Source of the DNA: Planctomycetaceae bacterium
Lineage (GTDB): Bacteria > Planctomycetota > UBA1135 > GCA-002686595
Direction of reading: 5' to 3'
Assembly (NCBI GenBank): GCA_050480685.1
Contig: JBJHAV010000001.1
Coordinates: 1-56,356 of the forward strand
DNA length: 56,356 nt
In this document: one piece after another, positions 31,156 to 50,200 of the stretch
Layout of the letters: every line of letters starts with the position of its first letter
How positions within the stretch are numbered: position 1 is the first letter of the stretch
The notes under the pieces: generated by a model
What the model was told of the DNA's origin: nothing
What the model saw: the letters and a program-made list of their open reading frames with translations, nothing else
Databases searched by the model: none
Program-made: the position numbers and the translations under genes

Positions 31156-31184
31156 GCCCCGACCTGGGCCGCTTTGACCTTGCC

Positions 31185-33755
31185 ATGCCCCAACGAGCCG
31201 CCCTCTTCCTCCTCGCACTCGTCGCCGTCACCGCCGGTCTGCTGCTTTTTTGGCGCACGTCCGCACCGACCGCGACATCGCCAGCCTTCCCCCAGCCCTC
31301 CACGCAGCCGGCAGCCGCTCCGCCGGCACTCGTACCCGACCCGCTGCACGAAGCCCGCCCCCGCACCGAACGCCAAGCCCTACCTGCTCCCGCAGGGATC
31401 GAGCCTGGGGCCGAAGAGATGGCCTCGGCTGCCCGACCCTTTGTCCCCGGCCCCTCCGATGGCTTCGGCGTGCGCGTGCGCTTTGCGGACGGCGAGCCCG
31501 CCGCGGGCGCGCGCGTGGAGTCCCTGGGCGCGGAGCTATACCTCAGCCCCGGGCGCATCGCGCTCGAAGTGAGAGCGGAGCGCGCCGCCCGCCAGAACCA
31601 AGCCCTTCCACCGACCTTTGACGGCGCCCACGCGGATCGGCGCTTCAGGGCCGATGACGAGGGTTGGGTACGGGTCCCCGATCTCGGCCTCGGCCAGATG
31701 TTGCTCGCGTTCGCCGAGCGCGACGAAAAGGAATGGGTCGCAAGCCTGCACCTTTGGCAAGCGCGCCGCGATCGACCCGTCGGCGAGATCGAACTGGTAC
31801 TGGAACCCCGCGTCGAACTCGAAGTCGAACTCGTCGATGCTCGCGGCGAGCCCGCCCCAGGCGTTGCGCTCTACGTGATCGGGGACCTTCCGATGGACCA
31901 CGGCCGCTGGCCCAACTCTTTGCGGGGGAGCCAGCTGGGTCGAACTGCGGCGCTTGGGGCACGCACGGATGGCGCCGGGCGTGCGCGGCTGGCGGAGCGC
32001 GCCATTCGGTTCCGCGATTTGGACCGCCCCGCCTTGTACGTGGCCTTGCCCTTCGACCCACCCATTGTGCCCTTCCTGGAGGAGACTCCCGGTGGCGGAC
32101 CGTGGCGCATCGTGCTCCCGCCCACGGGGTCCGTGCATGTCCAGGGCGCTCGCAGCGAGGTGTTCTTGCAGGTGGAGGGATCCGGCGCGCGGCCTTCCTC
32201 CACCTCGCTTCCTATTGACGGACGAGCCGAGTTCCCGCTGGTCGGGCTCGGTCTGAACCTGCGCGCCCAGGACCGCAGCGAGTCCGCGGCCCCTAGGCAC
32301 TTCGCAGGTCCAACCGAACCCGGCGAGCGGATCAAGGTGACCTTGGAGTCCAAGCGACTCTGGCGCCTGAATTTGGTGGATGCGGCTGGACAGGCGCTTG
32401 CGGATCGGACCGTTCGTGTGTCGGAGCGATCGGGGCGCAGCGCCATGTCCGGATACACCCTGACGGATGAAGCCGGTGGGCTCGACTTTGTGCCTAGATT
32501 GGAAGTCGGAGAAACCTGGCGCTTGGAGCTCGAAGTCGGAAACGAAGGTCCGAAATCGTCACATCACTTGAACGCCCGGATGGACTCGCTGCCGCCAGAA
32601 GAAGGGGAAGTCCAGGTCGTGCTTTACCCTGCCCCCCACCACGGCACGGGGCGTGTGCTCAATGACGTCGGCGATGCGGTCGCAAATGCCGAAGTCTTCC
32701 TCGTTCCGGAGGATCAACTCTTCGTCGCCAACAACATCTTCGGTCGCGGCCCTTTCGCGGTCACGGACAACGAAGGCCGCTTCGAGCTCGCGGGACCTCT
32801 GCCCGACCTCTTCGGGGATCTGCCCCTGGTCCGCTTCGCACGGCGGCCCGGGTATCCCGACTCGCTGCCCGTTCCCCACCGGCCCGGAGAAGACTCCGTG
32901 CTCGTCCTGGCGCGACCGGCGGAGGTGTCCTTCGAAATCCATTGGCCCGAAGGCTTTGCGATCGAGAGCCTCTCGTTCGAGCTGCGCTCTCCCCACGGCA
33001 CTCGCCTGTTGATGGACAGCCCCGGCGAGGCCGACACACCCGAACCCGGCGTGCGTAGCCGCCGGTGGCACGCCATGGGGGCCCCCAGTGGAGACATCGA
33101 ACTTCACGCCCACTCCCAGCTCGACGGCGCCTGGCTCACCTCGTGGCCGCTCCACGCGCCGGCCGGGCAGCGCGCGGAGCTGGACCCCATCGATCTACGT
33201 ACCGCAGTACCAATGAGTGCTGTGACGGTGCACTTGGAGGACCCCTCGAAGGTGCGGCACATTCGGCTCACCGGGCAGGTCGACGGCCTCTCGCACAGGA
33301 CCTGGATGGCGCCGGACATGTGGCTCCTGCCCAGGCCCGCGTCTGCCTTGGTACTCTCGGCCAAAGCGGAAGGACACCGCACCATCGCGTTGACCTGGGA
33401 CGGTTCCCCCTTGCGACTCGACTTTGAAATCGGCTGGCGGCTACCCGTTCGATTTTCGCCGGGCTTCGAAACTCCGGTCGAGTACGGCCCCCTGCATGTG
33501 CACTTCAACCTGACGGGGCCGGGTGGAAGTACGCCCAGCTCCCACTCCCTGGACTTTTCCCGCTCGGCGACCCAAGAGCTTCGGATCGAGGGCCCAGGTA
33601 CGCTCCGTGGTTATCCCTTCCTGCCGGAAGCTCCCGATCCGTTCGGGCCGCAAGTGACGATCGAACTCGACCTCGAACGCCTCGAAAGCGGAGAGCCGTT
33701 GGTGCTCGAGTTTGACCGCGAACGTTGGCAAGCCTGGTTGGATCGCCAGCGCTGA
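31185..33755 (+). CDS. Large N-terminally anchored secreted protein with repeated beta-sandwich-like (carboxypeptidase-regulatory-like) segments
   Basis: ATG at 31185 followed by AALFLLALVAVTAGLLLFW. Recurrent V(D/E)xxGxPxxGxxV-type segments. The ORF-track extension back to 30408 overlaps the AlkC-like gene and is junk-like. Confidence 0.6.
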   Translation: MPQRAALFLLALVAVTAGLLLFWRTSAPTATSPAFPQPSTQPAAAPPALVPDPLHEARPRTERQALPAPAGIEPGAEEMASAARPFVPGPSDGFGVRVRFADGEPAAGARVESLGAELYLSPGRIALEVRAERAARQNQALPPTFDGAHADRRFRADDEGWVRVPDLGLGQMLLAFAERDEKEWVASLHLWQARRDRPVGEIELVLEPRVELEVELVDARGEPAPGVALYVIGDLPMDHGRWPNSLRGSQLGRTAALGARTDGAGRARLAERAIRFRDLDRPALYVALPFDPPIVPFLEETPGGGPWRIVLPPTGSVHVQGARSEVFLQVEGSGARPSSTSLPIDGRAEFPLVGLGLNLRAQDRSESAAPRHFAGPTEPGERIKVTLESKRLWRLNLVDAAGQALADRTVRVSERSGRSAMSGYTLTDEAGGLDFVPRLEVGETWRLELEVGNEGPKSSHHLNARMDSLPPEEGEVQVVLYPAPHHGTGRVLNDVGDAVANAEVFLVPEDQLFVANNIFGRGPFAVTDNEGRFELAGPLPDLFGDLPLVRFARRPGYPDSLPVPHRPGEDSVLVLARPAEVSFEIHWPEGFAIESLSFELRSPHGTRLLMDSPGEADTPEPGVRSRRWHAMGAPSGDIELHAHSQLDGAWLTSWPLHAPAGQRAELDPIDLRTAVPMSAVTVHLEDPSKVRHIRLTGQVDGLSHRTWMAPDMWLLPRPASALVLSAKAEGHRTIALTWDGSPLRLDFEIGWRLPVRFSPGFETPVEYGPLHVHFNLTGPGGSTPSSHSLDFSRSATQELRIEGPGTLRGYPFLPEAPDPFGPQVTIELDLERLESGEPLVLEFDRERWQAWLDRQR

Positions 33756-33806: not shown

Positions 33807-34727
33807 TCAGAACTGGAAAGTCAAACGCACCCGACTGGAGAAGGCCCACTCCGACAGCACCGGACAGCCCCCTGCTCCCGGGGCGTAGGTCGCCCATTGA
33901 ACGTCGAGCGCTCCGCCGCTCAAACCCGCTTGACAGGGCACCACGAGGGAGTGGAACGCCCGGCCGGAGGCCACCGGCTTGATGAAGTAGATCCCGAGCG
34001 GCTGGATTTCGCAGGGCCCGCAGACGAGCGGGATGCTCGCGGTGGAAGCGAGGTTCAGGATGGCAATCGTCTGGTCGCCGGGGGAGCCGTTCAATCGCAG
34101 GGTCAGCGTGCTCGAACCAATCGCAGCGGCCCCATCCACGATCGCATTGCCGCCCCCGCAGCCGCCACCCAAGGGTGTCACGTTCGAGCCTGTGCCGAAC
34201 GACACGCGCTGGCCGAGGATGTCGCCGATTCCCGAGTTGATGCGGCACATCACGAGCAAACCCTCCTCGGGCTCCGCACTACCCGCCACGGCTGGCGCGG
34301 CCAAGGCCACACGCGCTTCGGCCGACGTTGTACTGCTCGCCACGGAACCCAGATTTTGGCACGGCGCACAGGAAGCGGAATCCAACGCGTGCAGCAGGAA
34401 GGACTCCGAGGTGGGCAGCAGGTCGCTGGATTGGACCCACGCCACGAAGGTCTTGCCCGGCCGAAAGGCCACGGCCGGGCGGCGGCCGTTGCCAAAGGTG
34501 AAGTTCGTCAACAGTTGCTCCGGACCTACCTCGATGGTGGCTCCGTTGCCGCTCAACCGCAGGCTGCGGGCCGCCAAATTGGTCCGACCCGCGGCCACTT
34601 GATGTTCGTAGGCCAGAACGAAGTCGGATCCGAGGCCGTCCAGGGCCGGGTGGCGCCGGTCGGCTCCCCCCGCGGCCAACACCGTCTCCGCGGTTGTTGC
34701 GCCCCCCCCAAGTGAAACCGTGCGCAT
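33807..34727 (-). CDS. C-terminal part of a frameshifted large secreted protein; in-frame coding signal continues upstream to about 34796
   Basis: Coding-like composition, Cys pairs, C-terminal ...VRLTFQF. The reading frame stays open upstream of the annotated Met (…GTRASGLPAFRGTATPGQTSLRM…). Confidence 0.55.
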   Translation of the reverse strand: MRTVSLGGGATTAETVLAAGGADRRHPALDGLGSDFVLAYEHQVAAGRTNLAARSLRLSGNGATIEVGPEQLLTNFTFGNGRRPAVAFRPGKTFVAWVQSSDLLPTSESFLLHALDSASCAPCQNLGSVASSTTSAEARVALAAPAVAGSAEPEEGLLVMCRINSGIGDILGQRVSFGTGSNVTPLGGGCGGGNAIVDGAAAIGSSTLTLRLNGSPGDQTIAILNLASTASIPLVCGPCEIQPLGIYFIKPVASGRAFHSLVVPCQAGLSGGALDVQWATYAPGAGGCPVLSEWAFSSRVRLTFQF

Positions 34728-36052
34728 GCGCAGTGAAGTCTGACCCGGAGTCGCCGTCCCCCGAAACGCCGGAAGACCACTGGCACGTGTCCCCCCGCCG
34801 TGCTCCGGCGGGGAACGGCCACTTGTCCAACGACCCCTTCCGTGGCCAAGTCCCAGGCCAATGGCTCGATGAAGCCGGAGAGCGACAGATTCCCGTTTTG
34901 ATCGCTCTGCACGCGAACGAAGCGCAGCGAGGCCAGGTTCTGATCGCGCCAGAGGACCACGAAGCGGTTCAGGGGGACCAGGGAGCGGTCGGCGGCGATG
35001 ACCGGCTCCGTGAGCGGATTGCCCACTGCGTTTGCGGCCGCGGAAAAGATCGGCCCGAAGGATATCGAACCTGTCCCGAAGTCCCGGCCGACCCGCATGC
35101 GAATGGAGTAGCCGTCCGTGGACGAGGATGCGCCCGGGGTGCGCTCCTGCCAGACGACGCCGAAGCGCGAGGAACCGAGGTCGGCGATCCTCGGGTTCTG
35201 GGCAAAGGACTGAAAGGGTGCCTGGGAGGGCGAAACTTCGAAGGCGATCTTGTTCGAGCCCGAAACGTTCGATGCGCTGCCCCGGATGACCGCGTGGTTG
35301 GCGGAAAACACCCGCTGGAACACGACCACGTGGTCGAAATCTCCCCCTACCAATCGCACCACGTCCGGGCGCAGGTCCTGTTGGGCGCCGCTCGACACGT
35401 TGAATACCGTGCCCACGAGAGGATCGACGAGCAGCGGATATCGCGCGGTCTCCACGAACTCGGCGGCCAGGCGCAACTGGAGCTCGCCGGGCGACCAGCG
35501 CAGCTCGCCGCCAGCCGTGCGGCCGTCCGCGTCAATGCCTGTCACGCCGCCGATCCGCACTCCGCCGACCCCGGGATACTCGAAGAGCAAACCACCGCAG
35601 GGCTGAGCAATGGGGTCCGGCAGGGTTGAGACGACGGGCACACGCAACACCAGATCCCCATCACCGACGGGACGTGCCGGGAGTAGGTAGGAGAACTCCA
35701 CGCCCCGGGGACCGATCTCCCAGCGTTCGCTCCTCCCCGCGCCCAGGTCGTAATCGACCCCGTTACCATTGCGGGCGAAGGCCATTCGGGGGAGCGGCTC
35801 ATCGGGGGCCGATTCACCTCGGCCCAGGCTCGCCGCACCGAAGTGCAGGGACTGAAGCGTCGGGACCAGATGCCCGAGGGCCGGCACGTAGCGAACTCCA
35901 CCGGGCTCGAAGTGAGCGCGGTAGTGGGGACCGATCGCCACATAGGCATCGGATTCGGCCCAAAGGCCGACCGCGTCGATGAACGAATTCTGGGCGGCGC
36001 CGGGTAGCCCGGCGGTGACGAGGAGCGCGGCGGCGAGTGCGGTCCGAAGCAT
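34553..36052 (-). CDS. N-terminal part of the same frameshifted secreted protein; the last ~80 codons are out-of-frame read-through
   Basis: Signal peptide MLRTALAAALLVTAGLPGAAQ. Composition turns Arg/Cys/Trp-rich junk after ...PRRSTAGG, at a G6 run on the coding strand (34791-34796). Confidence 0.55.
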   Translation of the reverse strand: MLRTALAAALLVTAGLPGAAQNSFIDAVGLWAESDAYVAIGPHYRAHFEPGGVRYVPALGHLVPTLQSLHFGAASLGRGESAPDEPLPRMAFARNGNGVDYDLGAGRSERWEIGPRGVEFSYLLPARPVGDGDLVLRVPVVSTLPDPIAQPCGGLLFEYPGVGGVRIGGVTGIDADGRTAGGELRWSPGELQLRLAAEFVETARYPLLVDPLVGTVFNVSSGAQQDLRPDVVRLVGGDFDHVVVFQRVFSANHAVIRGSASNVSGSNKIAFEVSPSQAPFQSFAQNPRIADLGSSRFGVVWQERTPGASSSTDGYSIRMRVGRDFGTGSISFGPIFSAAANAVGNPLTEPVIAADRSLVPLNRFVVLWRDQNLASLRFVRVQSDQNGNLSLSGFIEPLAWDLATEGVVGQVAVPRRSTAGGHVPVVFRRFGGRRLRVRLHCACARFHLGGAQQPRRRCWPRGEPTGATRPWTASDPTSFWPTNIKWPRVGPIWRPAACG

Positions 36053-36151
36053 GGCTGGAATGGACGGGGGTGGGGGCGACCACCGGGTCCATGGGCGATG
36101 CGGAGGGAGCGTTACGGCGGGCGGGGGCCGGCCCCCGGACCGGCGGCGGGG

Positions 36152-37510
36152 TCAGCGGGGGGGCAGGGGGCCGCCAACGGAGGTCAGGGCTTCAGCCAGG
36201 CGCTCGGGCAGGTCCGCGAGGCGGGGGTCGGACCCTGCGGGGAGGCGGCGGTGGGCTTCGGCGACGGCCGCGACCAGCTCGGCGGCGACAGCGGCAAGGG
36301 GCGCGGGCCGCAGATCGGGCACGGGCTCCGGGCCCTTGTGCAGCCTCAGGTGGGCCAGGCTGCCATCGGGGAGCACCAGCCGGTAGGCCTCCAGGTCGCA
36401 ACCCGGGCGGCCGAAGTCCCGCTCTTCGCCGAGGGCTTCCAGCGCCCCCGTGAGGGCCTCGGCCAGCCGCCGCGCGGTGCCCTCCGCCAGGGGCAGCTCG
36501 GCCGGATTGCCCAGGCCCAAGCGCAGCACATCGTCCCGCCCCACGGCCACAAACCACTCGCCCCGCCGACAGGAGCGCAGCTCAAGGCCCACGACCGCCG
36601 GTGGTAGGGCCAGGGGCGGCCGAGCCACTTGAGGCAAGCGCGGTAGTTCACTGAGCTCGAGGCCCGCGCGCGCGGCGATGCGCACGGCTAGGTCCGCTCG
36701 GGCGCCCTGCTGCCCCGGATCGTTCGGATCGAGTTCCGCGCGCACTTCGCCCAAGTCCCCGAGCCTGCGCTCCAGCAGCCGCCGCGCGTCGTGGCGCGCG
36801 GCGCGGCCCGGGTCCAACTCGAACCAGCGGTCGTCCCGGGCCAAGTCCGCGAGGGGCCAGGCCAGGGAAGCCGGCTCTCCCCAAGCGTCGAGCAACAGGG
36901 CCGCCGTGCGCCGAACCCGGTCGTCCTCATCAGCCAGCCGCGCGCGCACGCTCGGACGGCTGTCCAAGTCCGGGTCCCAGTCCACCGTCCACCCCAGGGC
37001 TTCCAACCCGAGCAGGGCAGCCTGCCGGACCGCCGCCAGGGGATCGTAAAGGGCGTACAGGAACCCCGGTCGCCACCGCTCGGCCTCGTCGGCCCTTCCG
37101 CCGGCCACCCGATCGTTCGCACCCTGGGCCAAGGCGCGCATGGCCGCCGGCCGCCAGGGAAAGTCCCGTTCCGAAATCACCGCCCAGAGCAGTCCGTCCA
37201 AGCGCCCATCGGCGAAGCGCCCGAGCACCTCGACCGTCTCCGGCCCCTGCTCCGCCAGTGCCTGCAGGTCCTCGCCGAAGCGCTCGGCGAGCCAGCCGGC
37301 CGCTTCCTCGCCCAGGCTCACCAGGCGGTTCGCCGCCTGGGGCCGAACCGGCGGCGGCCCGCTCTTGGCCGCATCGAGCCAACGTTCGAACAGCGCGGCC
37401 CGTTCGGCCGGGTCCTCCGGGATCGCCGGAGCCCCGCGCTGGGCGAACGCGGGCACCCCAGCCGACAACCAAAGCGCCGCCGCGAGGACAACGCAGCAAA
37501 GCCGCCTCAA
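36152..37510 (-). CDS. Secreted HEAT/ARM-like repeat protein
   Basis: Signal LCCVVLAAALWLSAGVPAFAQ. Repeated D..VR..A...L segments (DPLAAVRQAALLGLEALG, DEDDRVRRTAALLLDAWG). TTG at 37510 would give a TTGA overlap with the upstream stop. The ORF-track start is 37561. Confidence 0.55.
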   Translation of the reverse strand: MRRLCCVVLAAALWLSAGVPAFAQRGAPAIPEDPAERAALFERWLDAAKSGPPPVRPQAANRLVSLGEEAAGWLAERFGEDLQALAEQGPETVEVLGRFADGRLDGLLWAVISERDFPWRPAAMRALAQGANDRVAGGRADEAERWRPGFLYALYDPLAAVRQAALLGLEALGWTVDWDPDLDSRPSVRARLADEDDRVRRTAALLLDAWGEPASLAWPLADLARDDRWFELDPGRAARHDARRLLERRLGDLGEVRAELDPNDPGQQGARADLAVRIAARAGLELSELPRLPQVARPPLALPPAVVGLELRSCRRGEWFVAVGRDDVLRLGLGNPAELPLAEGTARRLAEALTGALEALGEERDFGRPGCDLEAYRLVLPDGSLAHLRLHKGPEPVPDLRPAPLAAVAAELVAAVAEAHRRLPAGSDPRLADLPERLAEALTSVGGPLPPR

Positions 37511-38004
37511 TAGACGCGGCCCTTGAGCCGGTAGAGACTGGTCAGAAAACCATCGTCCCATTGTTCACCGACCTCGAAACGGCCGATCACCTCGAATTGG
37601 CCGGTCATGCGGCGCACGCGCCCGTTCGGGCCCAGATCCACTTCCACGAAGTGGTGCACGAGCAGGCCCGCGGAGCACTGGCAGGACTCGCTCACCAGCG
37701 GAAAGGTGCGCGCGTCCTCCTCGGCGTTCATGTGCATGAAACCGCGCAGAACCACCCGCCGCCCATGCAGGGCGCGGATGTCCTCGGGCACGTCGGCGCC
37801 GGGCTCCCAGTTGATGTTCGTGAGCCGCATCAGGTCCACTTCAATCACCGGGTCTTGGGCAGTGTCCGCGTGATGGGCAGAGCCCAAAACATGCGCAGAG
37901 CCCGCAGGCTGCGCGGCGACGCCGCTTGAGCCCACCGGTAGCTCTGCGAGAAGCGCAGCGGCGAATGCCACCGCACCGGCCCGAATCGCAAAACGACTCA
38001 CCAC
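37507..38004 (-). CDS. DUF3299-like periplasmic protein, paralogue 3
   Basis: LHGRRVVLRGFM...FPLVSESCQCS...VEVDL...VIGRFEVGEQWDDGFLTSLYRLKGRVY matches the DUF3299 layout. GTG start overlaps paralogue 2 by 7 nt. Confidence 0.65.
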   Translation of the reverse strand: MVSRFAIRAGAVAFAAALLAELPVGSSGVAAQPAGSAHVLGSAHHADTAQDPVIEVDLMRLTNINWEPGADVPEDIRALHGRRVVLRGFMHMNAEEDARTFPLVSESCQCSAGLLVHHFVEVDLGPNGRVRRMTGQFEVIGRFEVGEQWDDGFLTSLYRLKGRVY

Positions 38005-38933
38005 AAACGCTCCACCGTCTGGGCACGCTGGCGGAAGATGCTGCGCACGTACCCGTAATCGTCGAGCAACTCGCCCACCTCGAAGGTCCCGATCACGCGC
38101 ACGGTGCGGTAGGCGAAGTACTCCACGCCATTCGGATCATCGACCTCCACGTCGATCCACTCGTCCATGCCCGGCATCCCGCCGAAGCAGCAACCGGGGG
38201 GATAGGGCGACAGCACGAAGGCGGTCACGCGCGAACCCTTGAAGTCGGTCGGCAGCATGAAACCTTCCACGGCCACGCGGCGACCGTCGAAGGCCAGCAC
38301 CTCGGCCGGGAACAGGTCTTCCTTGGTGTAGCCGTCGTCCGGGTCGAGGGGCGAGGGCGGCTCATAGTCGGGCACCATCAGGTCGTCCCAGGTGGCCAGC
38401 ACAACACCTTCGGGCAGGGGTAGATCGCTGGAACCGGCGCGCACCGGACCGTGATCCAGACCGCCGAAGCTGGAGAGCGGGTCGATTTGGAACCCCCCAT
38501 CCCAGCCTTCATCGTCCCAACCCTCGCCGTCATCGAATCCGTAGTCGGCCAGGGAGCCGCCCAGATCGATGGTCGCGCGGTCCGCCTGGGCGAGCCGCTC
38601 CGCGGAAAGCCCGTCCTCCAGGAGTTCGCGCGCACCCACGGCGACCCCGTCGATCGTGCCGTCGTCGGGGATCGTGTAGCCGGATCCCGCCAACGCCTCG
38701 CTCGCCTTCGAAGCCGCTTGTTCTTCCCGCGCCCGCTCCCCCCGGCCGCGCGGGGCGCGGGCCAGACGCTGGGGCCTGGGCGTGGCGCCCTCGACCGCGG
38801 CGTCGATACGCGCGGCCGAACGCACCAGGGCCTCGACCTGACCGTCGCCGGCGCCGTCACGGCCGCCGAAAAAGGCGGTGGCGAGGCCCACGGCGAGCAG
38901 GCATGTACCGAGGATGGCGATGGCGTACTTCAT
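37998..38933 (-). CDS. DUF3299-like periplasmic protein, paralogue 2, with a long acidic N-terminal region
   Basis: FDGRRVAVEGFMLP...FVLSPYPPGCCFGG...IDVEV...VIGTFEVGELLDDYGYVRSIFRQRAQTVERLW. N-terminal signal/anchor MKYAIAILGTCLLAVGLA. Confidence 0.65.
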   Translation of the reverse strand: MKYAIAILGTCLLAVGLATAFFGGRDGAGDGQVEALVRSAARIDAAVEGATPRPQRLARAPRGRGERAREEQAASKASEALAGSGYTIPDDGTIDGVAVGARELLEDGLSAERLAQADRATIDLGGSLADYGFDDGEGWDDEGWDGGFQIDPLSSFGGLDHGPVRAGSSDLPLPEGVVLATWDDLMVPDYEPPSPLDPDDGYTKEDLFPAEVLAFDGRRVAVEGFMLPTDFKGSRVTAFVLSPYPPGCCFGGMPGMDEWIDVEVDDPNGVEYFAYRTVRVIGTFEVGELLDDYGYVRSIFRQRAQTVERLW

Positions 38934-39066
38934 GGGGGCTTGGGGCGAGGGGCGGTGCGGCTACCTAGTGTAGGACGTCGGAGCCCGCCGCCGGTTTCCC
39001 CCGCCGAATCCGCGGTCGCGGGCCCCGTTCGAGGGCGCCGTGCGCGGCCTGGGAGCTCCACCGCCC

Positions 39067-39771
39067 CTAAAGCAGCGTTTCGATGCGATCCGCGCGCAAT
39101 CTGTAAAGACTCTGCACGAATCCGAGCACGTCGAGCTGCTCCCCCACTTCGAGCCGACCGGTCACGCGCACGGCCAAAAACGGGTGCCACGTGAAGCGCA
39201 GGTTCGGCCCGAGCGGCACGTCGATCAACTGGTCCTGGCCGAGCATCCCGCCGAACTGGCACGAAGGCGGGAACGGCGACAGCAGGATCACCGTGATCCG
39301 GCCGTCTTCGTAGTCCAGGGGCATGGCGAAGCCCTCCAGGGCCACCTGGCGTCCGTCGAGGGCCAGGATCTCCGGCGGGAAGATCTCCTCCCGCGGGGGC
39401 CGCTCCTCCTCCGGTCCCCCGCCGCCGGAGACATAACCGGGCAGAGCCAGGTCCTGGACCGTCAGGGGCACCACCCCTTCCGCGGGGGAATCGAGCAAGC
39501 GCCGGGGCGGAGTCAGGCCGTGGGCGCGCCAAAAGTCCCCGGCGGCCGGATCGTCGTGGCGCACGCTGCGCTCCACGGCGTTGAAGCCCCCCGCCAGAAA
39601 GGACGCGTCGAGACCCTCGGCGATGCGCCCCGCGCGGCGCTCCAGGGGCGCGGGCGGCGAGGCCCACTCCGCCTGGCGCGCTTCACGCCAGGCATCGGCC
39701 CCAAATCCCAGCCCCAGGGAAACAATCCCCGCCGTCAGCCAGGCCTGGAGCGGGGATGCGGTTTTTGCCAT
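39067..39771 (-). CDS. DUF3299-like periplasmic protein, paralogue 1
   Basis: LDGRQVALEGFAMP...ILLSPFPPSCQFGG...IDVPL...VTGRLEVGEQLDVLGFVQSLYRLRADRIETLL. Confidence 0.65.
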   Translation of the reverse strand: MAKTASPLQAWLTAGIVSLGLGFGADAWREARQAEWASPPAPLERRAGRIAEGLDASFLAGGFNAVERSVRHDDPAAGDFWRAHGLTPPRRLLDSPAEGVVPLTVQDLALPGYVSGGGGPEEERPPREEIFPPEILALDGRQVALEGFAMPLDYEDGRITVILLSPFPPSCQFGGMLGQDQLIDVPLGPNLRFTWHPFLAVRVTGRLEVGEQLDVLGFVQSLYRLRADRIETLL

Positions 39772-39805
39772 CGCGGATCGAAGCCGTGCCGTAGGGCGAA
39801 GCGGC

Positions 39806-40294
39806 TCAGAGGCCTTCGGGATGCTCGTACTTCATCGCCACCGACTCGAAGGTCAAGCCGCGTGTGACGATGCGCCGCAGGGTGCCTTCGAAAGCCGTCG
39901 CGCCGACCAGGGCCTCGTGGCTCCCCGAAAACTCGGAGGTATCCCCCACGGTTTCGCCGGTCAACTGACTGGCCATCGGCAGGAGCTCCAACTCGAAGCT
40001 CTGCCCTTGGGCGCTCCCGTCGATCACCATGCGATCGTGGGTCAAACGCACCGGGTGTTCCGCGTGGGCATCGAGGGAATACACCCGCAAGGTGCCGCTG
40101 GCCGGCTCCAGGATCAACTCCAAGTTGGCCTGGTGGTCCCCGAGTTCGATCAACACACCCCCGCGCGGCGCCACGTGCACATGCCCGTGTCCGTGGTCGT
40201 GCGCATGATCGTGATCGTGGCCGCAGCCGCTGGTGAAGGGCAGGGCCAGGCAAAGCAGCCAGGTGGCCGCGGTGGAGCGTGTGCGAGCGAACAT
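39806..40294 (-). CDS. His-rich (lipo)protein, putative periplasmic metal-binding component
   Basis: ATG at 40294 is preceded by AGGAGG (reverse complement of 40303-40308). Signal ending FTSGC, then GHDHDHAHDHGHGHVH. The ORF-track start at 40432 would overlap the permease gene. Confidence 0.7.
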   Translation of the reverse strand: MFARTRSTAATWLLCLALPFTSGCGHDHDHAHDHGHGHVHVAPRGGVLIELGDHQANLELILEPASGTLRVYSLDAHAEHPVRLTHDRMVIDGSAQGQSFELELLPMASQLTGETVGDTSEFSGSHEALVGATAFEGTLRRIVTRGLTFESVAMKYEHPEGL

Positions 40295-40323
40295 GGCGAA
40301 TTCCTCCTGGGATCGCGGATGGG

Positions 40324-41601
40324 TCAACTGGTCGGTTGGAGATTGTCCACCACCGCAGTGGCGTAGGCCTTCACGGCCGGGGCGAGGCCGGCGGCGGCGC
40401 CGAGCAGCACCATGCCGAGGGGCGCCGCCCACAGTACCGGGTGGGGCGCGAAGGGGTCGAGCACCACACCGGTCTGCTGGCGCACCACATAAGCCGCTCC
40501 GGCCAGGATTCCGCCGTAGAACAGGAATCCCGCCAGGCTGCCCAGGGCGGCGATGGCGCCGGCCTCGAGCACGATGGCGCTGAAGACGGTGCGTTTGCGC
40601 GCGCCCAGGGCGCGCAGAATCGCGAACTCGCGCCGCCGCTCGTGCATCGTGTTGTAGATCGCGGCCAGGATCGACGCCGCGGCCACGAGCACCACCAGGT
40701 ACGCAACCGCCTGCAACACACGCACGGCCCAGCCCAGCTTGTCGAAGATCTCCAGCATCACGCGCTGGACCGGATAGGCCAAGGTCGCGCGGGTGCCCTG
40801 GCGATTGATCTGCATGCCGAACTGAAAGCCGATCTGGGGCGTGCGGAAACGCAAAAGGACCGCGGAAACTTCCTTGTGCTCGTCCGGGATTTCCTGACCG
40901 GCCTCGGGGATGAAGTCCTCGCCCGTACCGCGCAGGATGTGCCCGTCCATGCGGAAGATGCCTTCGATCGGGATCAGGATCACACGATCGAGGGGTGTGC
41001 CGGTGGGCTCCAGGATGCCGACGACCTGATACTCCTCCGGGTGGATGATCTCTTGGCGCGGATCGGGCGCCGGCGCCAAACCGTGGCGCGGATTGAAGAA
41101 GCTGCCGAGCCTCAGGTTGGCGAGCCGATGCACTTCCGAGCCAATCACCGCCTCGCGCACGTCCGGGTCGAAGATCACACCGCCGGGACGAACCCTCAGG
41201 CGCTCCCCGCGGCGCACTTCGAGTTCGTGGAAGATCGCCGTGGTGGTGCCCACGATGCGAAAGCCCTGGTAGTTGTCGCCGACCGCGTAGGGGATCGCCA
41301 TGGAAACCCGCGGGTCCTCGGCCATCTCGCGGTACATGGACCAGGGGATGTTGCCCGGCGAAGTCTCCAGGTGGAACACGCTGTTGAGCACGAGCTGCAC
41401 TTCGCTGCCCCGCGCCCCGAGCACCGCATCCACGCCGAGGCCCTCGGCCGTGAAGGCGGCGCGGGCCTGGCTGTGCACGTTGAAGATCGCCATCACCAAG
41501 CCGATCGCCAAGGCGGTCGAAAACACGGTGACGACGGTCGAAACCAAGTGTTGGCGCAGGGAGCGCCGCACGATCAAGAGCAATCCAGCGAGCGACTTCA
41601 T
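40324..41601 (-). CDS. ABC transporter permease, MacB/FtsX type
   Basis: One N-terminal TM helix, a large periplasmic domain and three C-terminal TM helices with the FtsX-like segment (REFAILRALGARKRTVF). ATGA overlap with the ATPase gene. Confidence 0.85.
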   Translation of the reverse strand: MKSLAGLLLIVRRSLRQHLVSTVVTVFSTALAIGLVMAIFNVHSQARAAFTAEGLGVDAVLGARGSEVQLVLNSVFHLETSPGNIPWSMYREMAEDPRVSMAIPYAVGDNYQGFRIVGTTTAIFHELEVRRGERLRVRPGGVIFDPDVREAVIGSEVHRLANLRLGSFFNPRHGLAPAPDPRQEIIHPEEYQVVGILEPTGTPLDRVILIPIEGIFRMDGHILRGTGEDFIPEAGQEIPDEHKEVSAVLLRFRTPQIGFQFGMQINRQGTRATLAYPVQRVMLEIFDKLGWAVRVLQAVAYLVVLVAAASILAAIYNTMHERRREFAILRALGARKRTVFSAIVLEAGAIAALGSLAGFLFYGGILAGAAYVVRQQTGVVLDPFAPHPVLWAAPLGMVLLGAAAGLAPAVKAYATAVVDNLQPTS

Positions 41602-42299
41602 CGGGCCTTCTCCCCGGCTGCTTCGGGCTCGCTCCGGAACGCTTGATTGATCTCCGATAACTCGACCACCCGTTCGAAACGGTCGCGCACTTCGCGGTCG
41701 TGGGTCACCACCAGGAGCGCGGCCCCGTGTTCGCGGCAGAGTTCCTGCAAAAGCGCCAGTGCCTGCCGGGCGCGCTCCGGGTCCAAGTTCCCGGTGGGTT
41801 CGTCGGCGAGCACCAACCGCGGGCGGTTCGCGAGGGCTCGGGCCAGGGCCACCCGCTGCTGTTGGCCCACGGAGAGCTGGCCGGGCCGGTGCAACAAACG
41901 ATCCCCCAGGCCCAGTCGTTCGAGCAGGCCGCGGGCGAAGGCGCGGTCGGGGCCGGGCCCGAAAACCATTCCGAGCAGCACGTTTTCCAGGGCGCTGTAG
42001 CCCTGCAGCAGGTTGAAGGTCTGGAACACGTAGCCGATCTGCCGCGCCCGCAGGGCGTCGCGGCGCGCCTCCGAGAGCCGCACCAGGTCCGTGCCGTCCA
42101 GGCGCACCGAACCGCTGTCCGGGCGCAGGATGCCGGCGATCGCGTGCAAAAGGGTGGTTTTGCCCGAGCCGCTCTGCCCCACCAGCGCCACGTGCTCGCG
42201 CGCCTCCAGGGAAAACGACGGCACATCGAGCACCGGCTGGACCTCCCCGTCCGGCGAACGGTAGGTCTTGACCAGATTTTCTATTTCGAGCAAAGGCAT
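41598..42299 (-). CDS. ABC transporter ATP-binding protein (MacB/LolD-like)
   Basis: Walker A GQSGSGKTT, signature LSVGQQQRVALARAL, Walker B LVLADEPTGNLD. Confidence 0.9.
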   Translation of the reverse strand: MPLLEIENLVKTYRSPDGEVQPVLDVPSFSLEAREHVALVGQSGSGKTTLLHAIAGILRPDSGSVRLDGTDLVRLSEARRDALRARQIGYVFQTFNLLQGYSALENVLLGMVFGPGPDRAFARGLLERLGLGDRLLHRPGQLSVGQQQRVALARALANRPRLVLADEPTGNLDPERARQALALLQELCREHGAALLVVTHDREVRDRFERVVELSEINQAFRSEPEAAGEKAR

Positions 42300-42351
42300 C
42301 GGCGCTGCGGGGGCAAAAGCGGGGCTACGGGGCGTCAGGATACGCGTTGGC

Positions 42352-42383
42352 GGCCCCGGATCGGACCGAATTGCCCCGGGGCC
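42352..42383. terminator. GC-rich hairpin downstream of ppk2 (weak terminator candidate)
   Basis: GGCCCCGG (42352-42359) pairs with CCGGGGCC (42376-42383). No U-tract. Confidence 0.3.
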
Positions 42384-42443
42384 GGATGCCTGGCGCCGCC
42401 CGCTGCGCGCCAGGGACCGCCCGCAGGCTCGCGCGGCCGCGGT

Positions 42444-43955
42444 TCACCCCCCCAGGGCCGATTCGAGCCGCCGCGCCACCGTTTCCAGCACGTGAAGGCG
42501 GGCGAAGTACTTGTAGTTCGCCGGCACCACGCTCCAGGGCGCCTCGGGGCGGTGAGTGCGGCTGAGCATCTCGCCCACGGCCTCTTCGTAGGCCGGCCAC
42601 TTGGCCCGATTGCGATAGTCCTCTTCCGTGATCTTGTAGAGCTTGAGCGGATTGCGCTCGCGCTCCTGGAAACGCCGCAGTTGTTCGTCCGGGTCGATGT
42701 GCAGCCAAAACTTGTGCACGATCACACCCGACTCCGCCAGTTGTTCCTCGAAGTCGACGATCTCCCCGTAGGCGCGCTCCCAGACCGGCGGTTCGATCAG
42801 TTTTTCGACGCGCTCCACCAGCACCCGTCCGTACCAGGAGCGGTCGAACAGGCTCATGCGCCCCGGACGCGCGAGCCGTGTCCAGAAGCGCCACAGGTAG
42901 TGCTGCGCCAGTTCGTGGCGCGTCGGCGCGCCGATCTGCGTGACGCTGTACACCAAGGGATCGAGCATCGCGGTCAAACGCCGGATGCAACCACCCTTGC
43001 CGGCCGCGTCCCAACCTTCGAAGACCACCACGCTGGAGAGCCCCGCATGCCGCGCGCGCGCGGTCAGGCGCCGCAGTCGCCGCTGGAGCTTCTCGAGCCT
43101 GGGCTCGTATTCCTCCTCGGGCACACGGCTCGATAGATCGCAGTCGGCGAGCCGCGGCGCGCCCTTCGCGGGCGGAGCGGGAGAAGGCGCCGGCGCCACC
43201 CCGGCGGTCGGATCGGGCTCGCCGTCCAATCGCGCCTCCAGCGCATCCGCCAAGGCGCCCAGCACAAGCGCGTCCCGGCGCCGGCGCTGGGCAACTTCGA
43301 CCACGTGCAGGGGCGAAGTTTCGGTGGCGGTCGCTTCGCGCGCGGTCTGGGCCAATTTGCGAAATGCCTTGGGCCGCTCGGCCAGGGCCCAATCGAGTTC
43401 GCCCTCGTGCAGCGCTCCGACGCCGCGTTTCGCCCGCGCGAGCCGCCGTTCCAACCGCTCGGGCGGCAAGGTCAGCCAAAACTTGAGCAGCAAAGCGCCG
43501 TCCGCGAGCCACATGCGTTCGGTGCGCTCCGCATGGGCCAGGCGTTGCTCGAAACTGGCCCCGCGGCCGTTCTTTTCGCCCCGTTCGGCCTCGGCCAAAA
43601 TGGCCTGGGTCGTCCAGCCGCCGACAAACACCGCCATGCGCCCGCGCGGCGGCAAAACCCGCCAAAACCGCCACAGGGCCGGCTTTTCGCGCTCCTCCTG
43701 GGTCGGCGCCCCCAAAGCGTGCACCTCCAGGTGCCGCGGATCCATCCAGGCGAACAGGCGCCGCAGCACCTCGCCCGCCCCTGCGCGATCCTCGCCGCTC
43801 AGCACCAAAATCACCGGGAAGTCCGCCTCCAGCAGCCGGAACTGGGCGGCCAGCAGCCGCTCCCGCAGGCGCGGCGCGATTTGCTCCCACTCGGCGCGGG
43901 CCAGGCGCCCGGCGGGCGCCACGCGCAGGCCGGGCTCGACGTTCTCGAAGGCCAT
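42444..43955 (-). CDS. ppk2: Two-domain polyphosphate kinase 2 family protein (polyphosphate:AMP/nucleotide phosphotransferase type)
   Basis: Second domain has FEGWDAAGKGGCIRRL ... YLWRFW ... FDRSWYGRVLVERVE. A degenerate first PPK2 repeat lies at the N-terminus. Confidence 0.85.
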   Translation of the reverse strand: MAFENVEPGLRVAPAGRLARAEWEQIAPRLRERLLAAQFRLLEADFPVILVLSGEDRAGAGEVLRRLFAWMDPRHLEVHALGAPTQEEREKPALWRFWRVLPPRGRMAVFVGGWTTQAILAEAERGEKNGRGASFEQRLAHAERTERMWLADGALLLKFWLTLPPERLERRLARAKRGVGALHEGELDWALAERPKAFRKLAQTAREATATETSPLHVVEVAQRRRRDALVLGALADALEARLDGEPDPTAGVAPAPSPAPPAKGAPRLADCDLSSRVPEEEYEPRLEKLQRRLRRLTARARHAGLSSVVVFEGWDAAGKGGCIRRLTAMLDPLVYSVTQIGAPTRHELAQHYLWRFWTRLARPGRMSLFDRSWYGRVLVERVEKLIEPPVWERAYGEIVDFEEQLAESGVIVHKFWLHIDPDEQLRRFQERERNPLKLYKITEEDYRNRAKWPAYEEAVGEMLSRTHRPEAPWSVVPANYKYFARLHVLETVARRLESALGG

Positions 43956-44092
43956 CGCCCCACCATGGGGCCGCGCCAGGCCGGGCGCAAGTCGACACTC
44001 CCACCGGGCGCCCTCCCCGCTCCATACTGCGCGCTGCGGCGGGGCAGGGCCCGCGCCGCGCCGAAGTTCCCATCCCCGACGGAGATTCTTAG

Positions 44093-44533
44093 ATGTTCGC
44101 CAAGCTCGTTCGCCTCAGCGAAGCCCCCTTCCAAGGCCCCCGTCAGAAGGTTTGGAGCGACCTGGCGCTGCTGCTCCTGCGCCTGGTCTTCGGGGGCGCG
44201 ATGTTGCTACTCCACGGGTGGGGCAAGCTGATGAACTGGGGGGAAGCGAGCGCCCGCTTCTCCGATCCCCTGGGCCTGCCCGAACCCTTCGGCTTCGGCG
44301 CCCTGGTCTTCGCAGAAGTCCTCTGCGCCGCCCTAGTGGCGATCGGCCTCTTCACCCGCCTGGCGCTTTTGCCCCTGATCTTCGCCATGGGGGTCGCGCT
44401 GTTCGTGTTCCACGCGAACGACCCCTGGAATGCGAAGGAGCTCTCCCTGCTCTTCCTGGCCGCCTACACCGCGCTCCTCATGCTCGGCCCCGGCCAGTAC
44501 TCCCTGGACGCCTCCCTCAAGGGCAAGGGCTGA
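44093..44533 (+). CDS. DoxX-family membrane protein
   Basis: LALLLLRLVFGGAMLLLHGWGKL and four hydrophobic helices typical of DoxX. Confidence 0.8.
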   Translation: MFAKLVRLSEAPFQGPRQKVWSDLALLLLRLVFGGAMLLLHGWGKLMNWGEASARFSDPLGLPEPFGFGALVFAEVLCAALVAIGLFTRLALLPLIFAMGVALFVFHANDPWNAKELSLLFLAAYTALLMLGPGQYSLDASLKGKG

Positions 44534-44865: not shown

Positions 44866-46896
44866 ATGAACCGACGCTCTACCGTCCTGCGAGCCGTGGC
44901 GTTCACGCTCGCTGTCGTGGTCGCGGTCGTCTGGTTTGTTTCGGACTTCGCTCCCGAGGGCCAGCTTCCGGGGAACGACTTCGCGGCGCGGGGGCTGCCC
45001 GCGAGTGCATCGGGCGGGGAGGGTTCGACCGCGATCCAGCGGCCCGCCGACGACGAGTCGATGCGCAAGGAGATCTCTGCGATCTCTGCTCCACAGTCTG
45101 CCGCGGCCGCACAGCGCGAGATCGTGGGCAGGCTTGTCCCGTGGCCGGACATCGGAAGCGGCGTTGCCGCCCTCGACGGCGAAATTGCGATCCGGATCGA
45201 AGCCCGGTACGAGCTGGGCGAGCCCCACCCAGCCGCGTCGTGGATCGTGTCCGTGGTGGAAGGCAGGTTCCGCATCGGGCTAGCCGAGACGTTGGATGGC
45301 ACGCTCCACTTCGCCGAGCCGCGACTCGGTGGCGGACCGGTACACCTTCTGGACGACCGCGTGCCGGTACGACCGGGAGTGGATGAGATCCGGCTCCGGG
45401 TCGCGACCGCGCCGACCCTCACCCTGCGTGACGCCGAGACCGGAGTGGAGCTCGGGCTAGCGTGGCTCGCCGGCTCAAGCACGGTCGTGCCCGGGGCGCG
45501 CCCGCGCTGGCCCTATCCCGATGTGAGCGACGGCAGCCCCGCCCTGCTGGAGCGCGACGCTCCCGTTCCTGTGGACGCCCTTCCCGCCGGCGGCCGAACC
45601 CTGATTTCGGCGCCCGGGTACTGCTGGCAGCGCATCGGCGACGTACACGCGCGGAGGGGAGGGACTGTGCTCTTGCGGCGCTCGGGCGCCCTCGACCTGC
45701 GCTTCCATTGGTCCGCGGGAAACGCGAGGCGCATCGAGCTGCTCCTGCGCCGGACGCCGCCCGATACCTGGGAGTACCCGTCCTACGCGTTCGCATTCGA
45801 TTCCCCGGGATCCTCGATCTCCCGAGAGTTCGCCGCTGTGTTGGAAGGGCTGGAGCCGGGAACGCTGCAGTTCGTCGCGGCCCTCGACGGCGACATGGAG
45901 CATCACCTCGCCACGGGCTCCGTCGAGATCGTCGCCGGCATAGCGACCGCCCTAGGGATCGACTTCGCTCCGGCCGCGGAAGTCGATGTCGAGTTCCACC
46001 TCTCGTTCGAGGACGCGGCCGACCGCGCGCGGGCCCGCTCGTTCCGCGTCGCGGCGACGGACCCGCTCGCCAAGCCTGAGTGGAAGGTGGGCCGTCGATT
46101 CGACCTCCCTGACGGGGACGAGCCCTTCGCGCACCTTGGGCCCCGCCCGATGCCGCCGGGCGACTACGTGGCCGTGTTCGACTTCCTCGGCCTCCGGCAG
46201 GCATTCCGCATCGCGGCGGAGCCGCCCATTCAGGGCGTCCTGATCGAGCTCCCGATGCTGCGGCCGGTCCCGGTCCGGGTCGTCGGCCCGGACGGGACAC
46301 CCGAGGCCAAGGCCGCCGTACTGGGCTGGCGCGCCCGTCTGGATGACGGCGACCTTCCGGACGCCATGGTCCTGTGGCACCCGAGGCTCGAGACGCCCGC
46401 CCACCTGCCCGGTGTCGTGCCGCTGCCCCGCGCGCCGCTCCTCGACCTCGACCTCGACGCCGGCGCCGCCGGCAACGTCGCGCTGCGCGGCGTCCCAGGC
46501 GGTCCGGAACTCGAGCTGCGCGTGCCTGCGCCGCGCACCCGCATCGAGCTAATCGCCCACGTGGACGGCCGCCCGACCTACGTTCCGAGCGACTGGTGGC
46601 ATTCGAGCTTCCACGTCGTGATGGAGGATGGGAGCACCGAGCCAGCCTGGCCCTCCCTCGCGGACCACGGGCTACTCAACTCGCCGCCGACCACGCTGAC
46701 CCGCTGGGGCGCGATCGGGGGCTCCCGAGCGACCGCGTCGCACGGCACCCTCTGGCTCCACCCGGACGCGGTGTCGCTGGTGATCGCGGGCGCTGCGCCG
46801 GGCGACCCCCCAAAGACATTCGACGCCGCCCGACTCCGCGAGACCGGCGGCCTGACCATCGACTTGACCGCAGCGCCGGTCGCGGGCGGGCAGTAA
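44866..46896 (+). CDS. N-terminally anchored hypothetical protein, possibly beta-sandwich repeats
   Basis: Anchor VLRAVAFTLAVVVAVVWFV and a 676-aa ORF with coding-like composition. No family recognised. Confidence 0.55.
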   Translation: MNRRSTVLRAVAFTLAVVVAVVWFVSDFAPEGQLPGNDFAARGLPASASGGEGSTAIQRPADDESMRKEISAISAPQSAAAAQREIVGRLVPWPDIGSGVAALDGEIAIRIEARYELGEPHPAASWIVSVVEGRFRIGLAETLDGTLHFAEPRLGGGPVHLLDDRVPVRPGVDEIRLRVATAPTLTLRDAETGVELGLAWLAGSSTVVPGARPRWPYPDVSDGSPALLERDAPVPVDALPAGGRTLISAPGYCWQRIGDVHARRGGTVLLRRSGALDLRFHWSAGNARRIELLLRRTPPDTWEYPSYAFAFDSPGSSISREFAAVLEGLEPGTLQFVAALDGDMEHHLATGSVEIVAGIATALGIDFAPAAEVDVEFHLSFEDAADRARARSFRVAATDPLAKPEWKVGRRFDLPDGDEPFAHLGPRPMPPGDYVAVFDFLGLRQAFRIAAEPPIQGVLIELPMLRPVPVRVVGPDGTPEAKAAVLGWRARLDDGDLPDAMVLWHPRLETPAHLPGVVPLPRAPLLDLDLDAGAAGNVALRGVPGGPELELRVPAPRTRIELIAHVDGRPTYVPSDWWHSSFHVVMEDGSTEPAWPSLADHGLLNSPPTTLTRWGAIGGSRATASHGTLWLHPDAVSLVIAGAAPGDPPKTFDAARLRETGGLTIDLTAAPVAGGQ

Positions 46897-47084
46897 CAGG
46901 GAGGTCGCCGAGCCGAGGCTTCGCAAGCGCTGACGGGCGGCGTGTTGCGAAGGTCAAGCACCCCCTCGCTGCCCGTGGGTGGGGGAGCTCACTTTCGCGG
47001 GCGTAACGCAATCCAGCCCGGGGATGTGTTGTTATCTTGTACCGACACCGTAGGTGCGCTCTCGGGCGGCCGCGGTGTCACCCC

Positions 47085-49628: not shown

Positions 49629-50200
49629 CCCCATCGCAAACAAAACCGAACATGCCCTCCATGACCAGCGCCGAGGGAGCCGGCGCGGCTCGCATCCCCT
49701 TCTCGCCCCAGGGGGAAATGGTGGCCGCGCATTACGAACGGCTGCGTTCGCTCGCCAAACGCCTGCTCGGCATGCCCGCCGGGTCCGGGATCGAGGCCAC
49801 GGACGTGGTGCACGAATGTTACCTGCGCCTCGAGCGGCTGGAGGGTTTCCAGGACCTGGGCTCGACCCGATTCCTCGCCCTGGCCGCCCGGACCATCCGC
49901 CACGTGCTGGTCGAAATGGCCCGCAGGCAGGGGGCTCTCAAGCGCGGCGGCAACCTGCACCGGGTGACCCTGCGCGCGGCCCTGGACATCGAGGGCAAGT
50001 CGGAGATCGACGTGCTCGACCTGGAAGAAGCCCTGGAGCGCCTGGACGGCCTGCATCCGCGCCAGGCCAGGGTGGTGGAGCTGCGTTTCTTCGGCGGCCT
50101 GACTGCGGAGGAGACCGCCGAGGTGCTGGGCATCGACCGCCAGGTGGTCCGCCGGGACTGGAACATGGCCCGGGCCTGGCTCCTGGACCAGCTCGGCTGA
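49625..50200 (+). CDS. ECF-type sigma-70 factor (TIGR02999 / kinase-associated ECF-like group)
   Basis: VVHECYLRL, RHVLVEMARRQGALKRGG, ARVVELRFFGGLTAEETAEVLGI and VRRDWNMARAWL. TTG at 49625 gives a TTGA overlap with the kinase stop. An ATG at 49652 is the alternative start. Confidence 0.8.
   Translation: MTPSQTKPNMPSMTSAEGAGAARIPFSPQGEMVAAHYERLRSLAKRLLGMPAGSGIEATDVVHECYLRLERLEGFQDLGSTRFLALAARTIRHVLVEMARRQGALKRGGNLHRVTLRAALDIEGKSEIDVLDLEEALERLDGLHPRQARVVELRFFGGLTAEETAEVLGIDRQVVRRDWNMARAWLLDQLG

Follow-up and report, generated by a model that had tools for sequence, protein, structure and literature searches.

We have analyzed a seven-gene cluster in a stretch of DNA of 56,356 nucleotides from a Planctomycetaceae bacterium, hereafter called the window, which has a G+C content of ~70%. 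Seven co-directional open reading frames (ORFs), some of them overlapping, occupy positions 36152-42299 of the minus strand. The first encodes the 233-aa ATPase of an ATP-binding cassette (ABC) transporter, of the LolD/MacB/YbbA type (41598-42299; PF00005, 118 bits), and is followed by the gene of an FtsX/MacB-type permease (40324-41601; PF02687 FtsX at 57.9 bits, PF12704 MacB_PCD at 29.2 bits). Next is a 162-aa His-rich lipoprotein (39806-40294) that we call HisLipo, with its lipobox cysteine at position 24 and a predicted all-beta structure. Three genes then encode DUF3299-related proteins, designated paralogues A (39067-39771, 234 aa), B (37998-38933, 311 aa) and C (37507-38004, 165 aa), and the last encodes a secreted HEAT-repeat protein (36152-37510; PF13646, 28.3 bits), of 452 aa when read from a TTG codon.

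The ATPase and permease genes share an ATGA overlap, the ATG of HisLipo is preceded by AGGAGG within a 29-nt spacer after the permease gene, and 7 nt are common to the genes of paralogues B and C. The TGA stop of paralogue C and an in-frame TTG at 37510 are joined as TTGA, and initiation at this TTG gives a clean signal peptide; read from an ATG at 37561 the HEAT ORF spans 36152-37561 and encodes 469 aa. Because of these overlaps and the short spacers, the seven genes constitute a single operon. A first-pass annotation had described seven co-directional genes with ATGA coupling, a 7-nt overlap and possible TTGA coupling; all of the ORFs are present on the strand and at the coordinates it gave, and each of the couplings is seen in the sequence. 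It could be argued that functionally unrelated neighbors have been grouped fortuitously, since an internal promoter might be situated in the 133 nt that separate the genes of paralogues A and B. We consider this exceedingly improbable, given the start/stop overlaps and the recurrence of the gene set in many independent genomes and metagenome contigs. The arrangement is not due to chance, because the gene order itself recurs in independent genomes, and the synteny contradicts a fortuitous grouping.

The extent of this synteny was examined by scanning genomes with the pattern [FY]PPGCCFG, characteristic of paralogue B. This gave 21 loci, 20 of which are labelled Planctomycetota or Planctomycetaceae and one (L026) just 'bacterium'. 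Among them is the complete genome of Engelhardtia mirabilis Pla133 (L011), in which the operon lies at about 1.329-1.334 Mb of NZ_CP036287. The exact seven-gene order is found in two metagenome-assembled genomes (L009 and L010). E. mirabilis and locus L001 have the ATPase, FtsX permease, HisLipo, B, C and HEAT genes, with no A, and at L015, L016, L071, L110 and L112 the pump occurs with B, C and HEAT; HisLipo is present in most syntenic loci. The domain of paralogue B is 64-66% identical in L009-L011. Orthologues of paralogue A were found in L009 and L010 only, at 41-46% identity. The gene of paralogue C lies directly upstream of the HEAT gene at every locus in which we found the two.

On these comparisons the widely conserved set comprises the ATPase, the FtsX permease, HisLipo, a CCFG-type DUF3299 protein, a CxC..H-type DUF3299 protein and the HEAT protein. 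The first-pass annotation had regarded the DUF3299 gene as triplicated. There are indeed three paralogues in the window, but the synteny resolves them into two old types and one recent extra copy. The CCFG and CxC..H types are old, distinct paralogues that have been kept with the HEAT protein across the Planctomycetota, and A is a recent, faster-evolving extra copy that has lost the second cysteine and is known in three genomes (that of the window and the two metagenome-assembled genomes).

DUF3299 paralogues and the HEAT-repeat protein

Paralogues A and B narrowly pass the Pfam gathering threshold for DUF3299 (PF11736, 22 bits), with scores of 25.1 and 24.4 bits, respectively. Paralogue C has no Pfam match. 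A and B are 44% identical over 136 aa (BLASTP, E = 2e-35), and C is related to both (E = 5e-14 with A and 7e-9 with B). Comparison of the C and B families using hhalign gave a probability of 98.9% (E = 2.7e-17). A profile of the subfamily matches the crystal structure 4hsp over the whole domain (chain residues 34-146, E = 1.1e-11), and 40 of the 47 subfamily members match PF11736 at E <= 0.01. The structure 4hsp is that of PA4066 (PMC8561739). A word-indexed homology search with paralogue A returned the query alone. By sequence criteria the homology of the three proteins to DUF3299 is secure. The annotation had assigned all three to this family; A and B do pass Pfam, and C fails to match it yet is paralogous to them, as a true but more distant homologue.

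The canonical loop of 4hsp/PA4066 reads GACIHVPPPPSNQ, and thus has the Cys-x-His-x-Pro-rich motif that the first-pass annotation gave for canonical members. The full G-A-C-x-H-x-P-P-P-P loop is absent from all three paralogues, in which the cysteine alone is kept; A, B and C are therefore placed in a divergent subfamily. Their loops read PPSCQFGG..DQL with a single cysteine in A (core SCQFGG..DQ), PPGCCFG..DEW in B (core GCCFGG..DEW) and SCQC..HHF in C (SCQCSAG). These cysteine motifs had been pointed out before, and they are both present and conserved. In six aligned members of the C family C108, C110 and H118 are invariant, giving CxC-x7-H. The cysteine motifs are hallmarks of the family, and the CC motif does not set this locus apart. 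When cluster representatives were searched exhaustively with the subfamily profile, 2612 matched at E <= 1e-3, of which 1042 reached E <= 1e-10, and in the great majority of the best 150 subfamily matches the motif is of the CC type, e.g., PPGCCFG..(D/N)EW, with a few CH, CQ and CG. The CC motif is thus the commonest among the best 150 of a subfamily with >1000 representatives, and paralogue B is the prototype of this large CC subfamily.

Paralogue B has an N-terminal membrane anchor and an acidic linker. The linker (38400-38620 on the minus strand, residues about 105-175) is strongly acidic and contains repeated GxDDxGW motifs, GFDDGEGWDDEGWDGGF; it could serve as a low-affinity cation-binding region or as a spacer.

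A CC-type DUF3299 domain is also found at the C-terminal end of a 486-aa protein with a WD40 propeller (L014:8921-10378), and there are similar proteins in L018, L019 and L022. Beside the L014 gene lie those of an ABC ATPase (L014:4895-5590) and a permease of 1094 aa, two stretches of which are of the FtsX type (L014:5604-8885). This arrangement is a second architecture of the pairing of a pump with DUF3299.

For the HEAT-repeat protein there are 59 full-length homologues. Their lengths are 395-707 aa, with the majority at 407-455 aa, and all those with a named taxon are from Planctomycetes or Planctomycetaceae. The AlphaFold 2 (AF2) model has a predicted local distance difference test (pLDDT) score of 93.4, with the helices of a HEAT solenoid at 34-281 and a C-terminal alpha/beta domain at 305-446 that contains two invariant cysteines. 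A fold search with Foldseek returned generic HEAT/alphaRep scaffolds only, and gave no clue to the C-terminal domain. We read the protein as a protein-binding scaffold that is paired with the C-type paralogue.

The His-rich lipoprotein and its genomic company

The N-terminus of HisLipo reads MFARTRSTAATWLLCLALPFTSGC followed by GHDHDHAHDHGHGHVH, with a signal peptide through Cys24 after which GHDHDHAHDHGHGHVH begins. A disordered HDHDHAHDHGHGHVH tail follows the cysteine and leads into a domain of eight beta strands, which is all-beta in the AF2 model (pLDDT 87). The protein has no match in Pfam or NCBIfam. We could assemble a family of 96 database proteins and 422 metagenome relatives; the taxon-named members are from Planctomycetota (including Phycisphaeraceae and Ca. 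Uabimicrobium) together with one from Hydrogenedentes. Near-invariant features of the family alignment are the lipobox cysteine, HxHxAP(H/R)GG, an invariant glutamate and LTGETVGDTSxF. Foldseek found no match to the fold in the PDB at E < 1e-3 (best E = 0.016).

The operon had earlier been likened to PA4063-PA4066 of Pseudomonas aeruginosa, and HisLipo would then correspond to PA4063, i.e., ZrgA (DUF2796). We rejected this homology, since HisLipo has no Pfam match and an all-beta model, and PA4063 was absent from the Foldseek list. A PDB profile match to PA4063 (7ahw) involved a low-complexity His run only (E = 0.056). The fold of PA4063/ZrgA is alpha/beta and ferredoxin-like (PMC8561739). From its sequence and model HisLipo is therefore analogous to ZrgA and not homologous. 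The likeness to PA4063-PA4066 otherwise stands, with the split ABC pair, the DUF3299 proteins, an exported His-rich protein and the match to 4hsp.

In the metagenome loci the FtsX gene lies directly upstream of HisLipo in 23 of 62 that are informative, and a DUF3299-like gene lies at most 1.3 kb downstream in 23 of 47. A further 29 HisLipo loci are free of the pump. Among the 102 neighbors at these we find seven COG0523/CobW GTPases, three ZnuA, two ABC-3 permeases, two TonB-dependent receptors, one CobN and five RND pumps. Around 24 complete clusters ABC-3 permeases occur four times and ZnuA twice. Some of the arrangements are compact. Locus L091 has the order COG0523, HisLipo, ZnuA, ZnuB, COG0523, and in Ca. 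Uabimicrobium HisLipo comes immediately after ZnuA. The complete cluster can itself adjoin zinc-uptake genes, as in L055 (ZnuA, ZnuC, ZnuB, a 177-aa gene, ATPase, FtsX, HisLipo, DUF3299) and L081 (ZnuA, ZnuB, ATPase, FtsX, HisLipo, DUF3299). We estimate that ZnuABC and COG0523 neighbors are far more frequent than expected by chance, because such genes are few in any genome. A connection of the system with zinc, or with a divalent metal like it, is thus supported by genomic association, because relatives of HisLipo adjoin ZnuABC, COG0523 GTPases and CzcA-type pumps.

Comparable proteins are ZinT (with ZnuABC) and CusF (with CusCBA), which are small, exported, His-rich in part, and encoded beside metal transporters of the uptake or efflux type; HisLipo, like these, presumably serves the metal transporters that it adjoins. 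It differs in matching no solved chaperone by sequence or fold, in being lipid-anchored, and in its own motifs HxHxAPHGG and LTGETVGDTSxF.

The RND pumps raise the possibility that the system works in the opposite direction, in the detoxification or export of periplasmic metal or of metallophore-metal complexes, with HisLipo feeding a MacB-type extruder as CusF feeds CusCBA. Of four RND pumps scanned singly, three are of the CusA/CzcA family and one is of the multidrug type, and three loci, L042, L059 and L084, have a relative of HisLipo directly downstream of a CusA/CzcA-family pump (718-1209 bits against a cut-off of 701; HisLipo at about 3851, 8001 and 8001, respectively). Moreover, the characterized MacB-type pumps are exporters, and PA4064/65 has been proposed to export pyochelin-cobalt (PMC11481552). 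However, none of the seven products of our operon matches the HlyD/MFP or OEP families of Pfam, so that the cluster encodes neither a membrane-fusion protein nor an outer-membrane factor. ZnuABC and COG0523 are found as neighbors no less often than RND pumps, and the Zrg system aids growth of Vibrio in low zinc. We regard an exporter as rather unlikely.

Other neighbors of HisLipo relatives may be recorded here. A CNNM/CorC-type protein lies between the RND pump and HisLipo in L059, and probably also in L084 as judged by gene size. At L086:4238-7945 and L048:4184-7879 the neighbors are a CobN/Mg-chelatase-like protein, accompanied by a COG0523 GTPase and by HisLipo in two tandem copies, and 1232-aa proteins with a zinc-carboxypeptidase M14 domain. 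A gene for ribosomal protein L28 upstream of HisLipo (L006) was considered as a marker of a Zur regulon; it seems to be a normal copy, containing one cysteine, and we regard it as uninformative.

The transporter and its relation to Zrg and PA4063-PA4066

The nearest NCBIfam and PDB relatives of the ATPase are the nucleotide-binding domains of LolD, YbbA, DevA, FtsE and MacB, with none above its equivalog cut-off; for LolD the score was 202 bits against a cut-off of 308. The permease likewise does not reach the level of the LolCE equivalog (28 bits against 362), and its matches in the PDB are weak (5xu1, MacB and LolF). NCBIfam contains no model specific for PA4064/65 or ZrgBC. Hydropathy analysis places transmembrane (TM) segments of the permease at 22-40, 298-316, 343-368 and 389-407, with a periplasmic loop of ~255 aa between the first and second. 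An FtsX-type 4-TM permease, a large periplasmic domain and a LolD/MacB-like nucleotide-binding domain are shared with the type VII transporters MacAB-TolC, LolCDE and FtsEX. By analogy with these, such features suggest that the pump probably operates by mechanotransmission instead of through a transmembrane channel. The planctomycete cluster differs from MacAB-TolC in having no MacA-type adaptor or TolC, and from the type VII transporters as a group in that its permease has a barely recognizable periplasmic domain (MacB_PCD, 29 bits) and, as partners, OB-fold proteins of the DUF3299 type together with a His-rich lipoprotein and a HEAT protein.

The likeness to LolCDE and FtsEX can also be taken to mean that metal is not involved at all, and that a mechanotransducer activates or releases envelope proteins, lipoproteins or peptides. 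The DUF3299 proteins would then be adaptors, the HEAT protein (elsewhere WD40) a client-binding scaffold, and HisLipo cargo or an accessory. The ATPase is indeed closest to LolD, and the permease matches FtsX, MacB and LolF in the TM region only. In the WD40 fusion described above, a CC-type DUF3299 domain adjoins an ATPase and a double FtsX permease; the C-type/HEAT pair occurs at L111 with no pump nearby; and PA4066 showed no evident zinc binding. These points have to be set against the His/Asp-rich tail and conserved HxH/Glu motif of HisLipo, the repeated linkage of the lipoprotein and of whole clusters to ZnuABC and COG0523, and the zinc regulation of homologous DUF3299/ABC operons in Vibrio and Pseudomonas. 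A non-metal function of this kind seems to us quite unlikely.

The closest comparison is with ZrgABCDE of Vibrio cholerae and Vibrio parahaemolyticus and PA4063-PA4066 of P. aeruginosa. The zrgABCDE and PA4063-66 genes are induced by zinc limitation and aid growth in low zinc, and ZrgA is required by V. cholerae in zinc-deficient medium when znuA is deleted (PMC9817125, PMC9820375, PMC11481552). These systems too have a separate ATPase and 4-TM FtsX/MacB-type permease, and an exported His-rich protein of metal-binding type encoded in the operon, with zinc-uptake genes as genomic company; their periplasmic DUF3299 protein (ZrgE/PA4066) has homologues in the planctomycete operon. There are also clear differences. 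The His-rich component is a ferredoxin-like DUF2796 protein in Zrg/PA4063-66 and an unrelated all-beta lipoprotein in the planctomycetes. In place of C-x-H-x-PPPP the motif is CC or CxC..H, and the number of DUF3299 paralogues is two or three. A secreted HEAT-repeat protein, which is conserved, has been added, and none of the seven planctomycete products was found to be homologous to ZrgD (DUF2607). The known systems are Zur-regulated and found in Gammaproteobacteria, whereas the present operon is in Planctomycetota and no Zur box was found in it. The conclusion that emerges is that the operon is a planctomycetal, lineage-specific version of the Zrg/PA4063-PA4066 kind, and not a wholly new kind of system.

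Zrg and PA4063-PA4066 matter for the growth of Vibrio and Pseudomonas in low zinc, and the direction of transport is disputed there. The triad of pump, DUF3299 and His-rich protein is evidently ancient and widespread, and proteins of unrelated fold can take the place of the His-rich component, an argument for function and not ancestry. The analysis also defines an unannotated, metal-associated lipoprotein family of hundreds of members, and a conserved module of C-type DUF3299 and HEAT proteins.

Mechanism, direction and regulation

Our favored reading, to which we incline on balance and with modest confidence, is that the operon encodes a Zrg-like machine based on a type VII ABC transporter (MacB/FtsX/Lol-like), which would handle zinc, or a divalent metal like it, in the periplasm. 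The data establish how the genes are arranged, what their products resemble in sequence and fold, how far the gene order is conserved, and the association with zinc genes. The binding of metal by any component, the contacts among the parts and, most of all, the direction of transport are inferred. Import is favored because of the company of ZnuABC and COG0523 and the genetics of V. cholerae. In such a machine the flexible His/Asp tail of the lipid-anchored HisLipo would capture metal, and could pass it to the conserved HxH plus Glu/Asp site on its own beta-sandwich. HisLipo might then exchange metal, giving or taking, with the periplasmic domain of the 4-TM permease and with docked OB-fold DUF3299 proteins, in which the conserved cysteine-containing loops (CC..DE in type B and CxC..H in type C) would take part. 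Hydrolysis of ATP by the cytoplasmic ATPase would change the conformation of the periplasmic domain by mechanotransmission, whereby the metal would be moved onward. The HEAT-repeat protein would be the scaffold partner of the C-type paralogue.

Several considerations weigh against this reading. Characterized type VII ABC transporters, such as MacB and LolCDE, act on substrates from the periplasmic side and are not known to import them. The analogy of HisLipo with ZrgA rests on composition and context, and as noted some of its relatives adjoin CusA/CzcA-family pumps. The WD40-fused CC-type DUF3299 proteins stand beside other FtsX pumps, and may mean that the domain is a generic pump adaptor and not a metal protein. 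PA4066, as noted, showed no evident zinc binding. PA4064/65 has been argued to work in export. Zur, ZnuA and COG0523 were not found among the 25 other window ORFs scanned, nor was any recognized metal gene. Finally, the region upstream of the ATPase gene (42300-42443), in which the first-pass annotation had suggested a search for Zur/Fur boxes, contains no Fur/Zur-type palindrome; the element found there instead resembles a promoter for an extracytoplasmic function (ECF) sigma factor and not a Fur/Zur operator.

This candidate promoter, CCAACGCGTATCCTGACGCCCCGTA (AAC-N16-CGTA), lies at 42326-42350 on the minus strand, and its likeness to ECF-sigma promoters is suggested by its spacing and its AAC/CGT cores. 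The sequence CCAACG-N-GTATCCTG...CCCCGTA recurs ~30 nt before the ATPase start, with a spacer of 16 in L009 and 17 in L010, and the upstream region of L011 keeps GTATCCTG. There is no match to the sigma-70 consensus in 36000-44200. The 250 nt upstream of 25 orthologous ATPase genes were scanned for AT-rich inverted repeats. None was present in the window, L009, L010 or L011, although the sequence of the Planctomycetota Zur box is itself not known; scattered palindromes in more distant metagenome loci are mutually dissimilar.

The zinc-handling reading can be taken a step further, into an ATP-powered periplasmic metal relay that has not been described so far. HisLipo and the two DUF3299 types would pass zinc by way of conserved sites that include thiolates (CC..DE and CxC..H), a MacB-type mechanotransducer would power the process, and the C-type/HEAT pair would deliver metal to a partner or extract it. 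As a specific scheme we offer this as speculative, and unlikely to be correct in full. If true, it would be the first mechanistic assignment for DUF3299, and for MacB-type pumps in zinc homeostasis. The cysteine loop is the most conserved feature of DUF3299, and its natural variants (C-x-H, CC, CxC..H and single C) can be tested for metal binding. Natural variation thus provides a way to probe the role of DUF3299 and MacB-type pumps in zinc homeostasis.

Some other features of the window may be noted. Large ORFs flanking the operon at 34553-36052 (-), 33807-34727 (-), 44866-46896 (+) and 31155-33755 (+) have coding-like G+C at third codon positions and match no Pfam family significantly, with a sub-threshold CarboxypepD_reg match as the only indication for 31155-33755 (+). 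Directly upstream of the operon, at 42444-43955 (-), is the gene of a two-domain PPK2, a polyphosphate:AMP phosphotransferase that scores 544.7 bits with TIGR03708 (cut-off 547.65). This is a neighbor that recurs in L009 and not in more distant relatives. At 47037-49628 (+) an 863-aa Ser/Thr protein kinase is fused to an FGE-sulfatase domain, and its gene overlaps by 4 nt that of a planctomycete-type ECF sigma factor (49625-50200 (+); PF07638). The kinase and the sigma factor are a possible regulator pair, ~5 kb from the operon.

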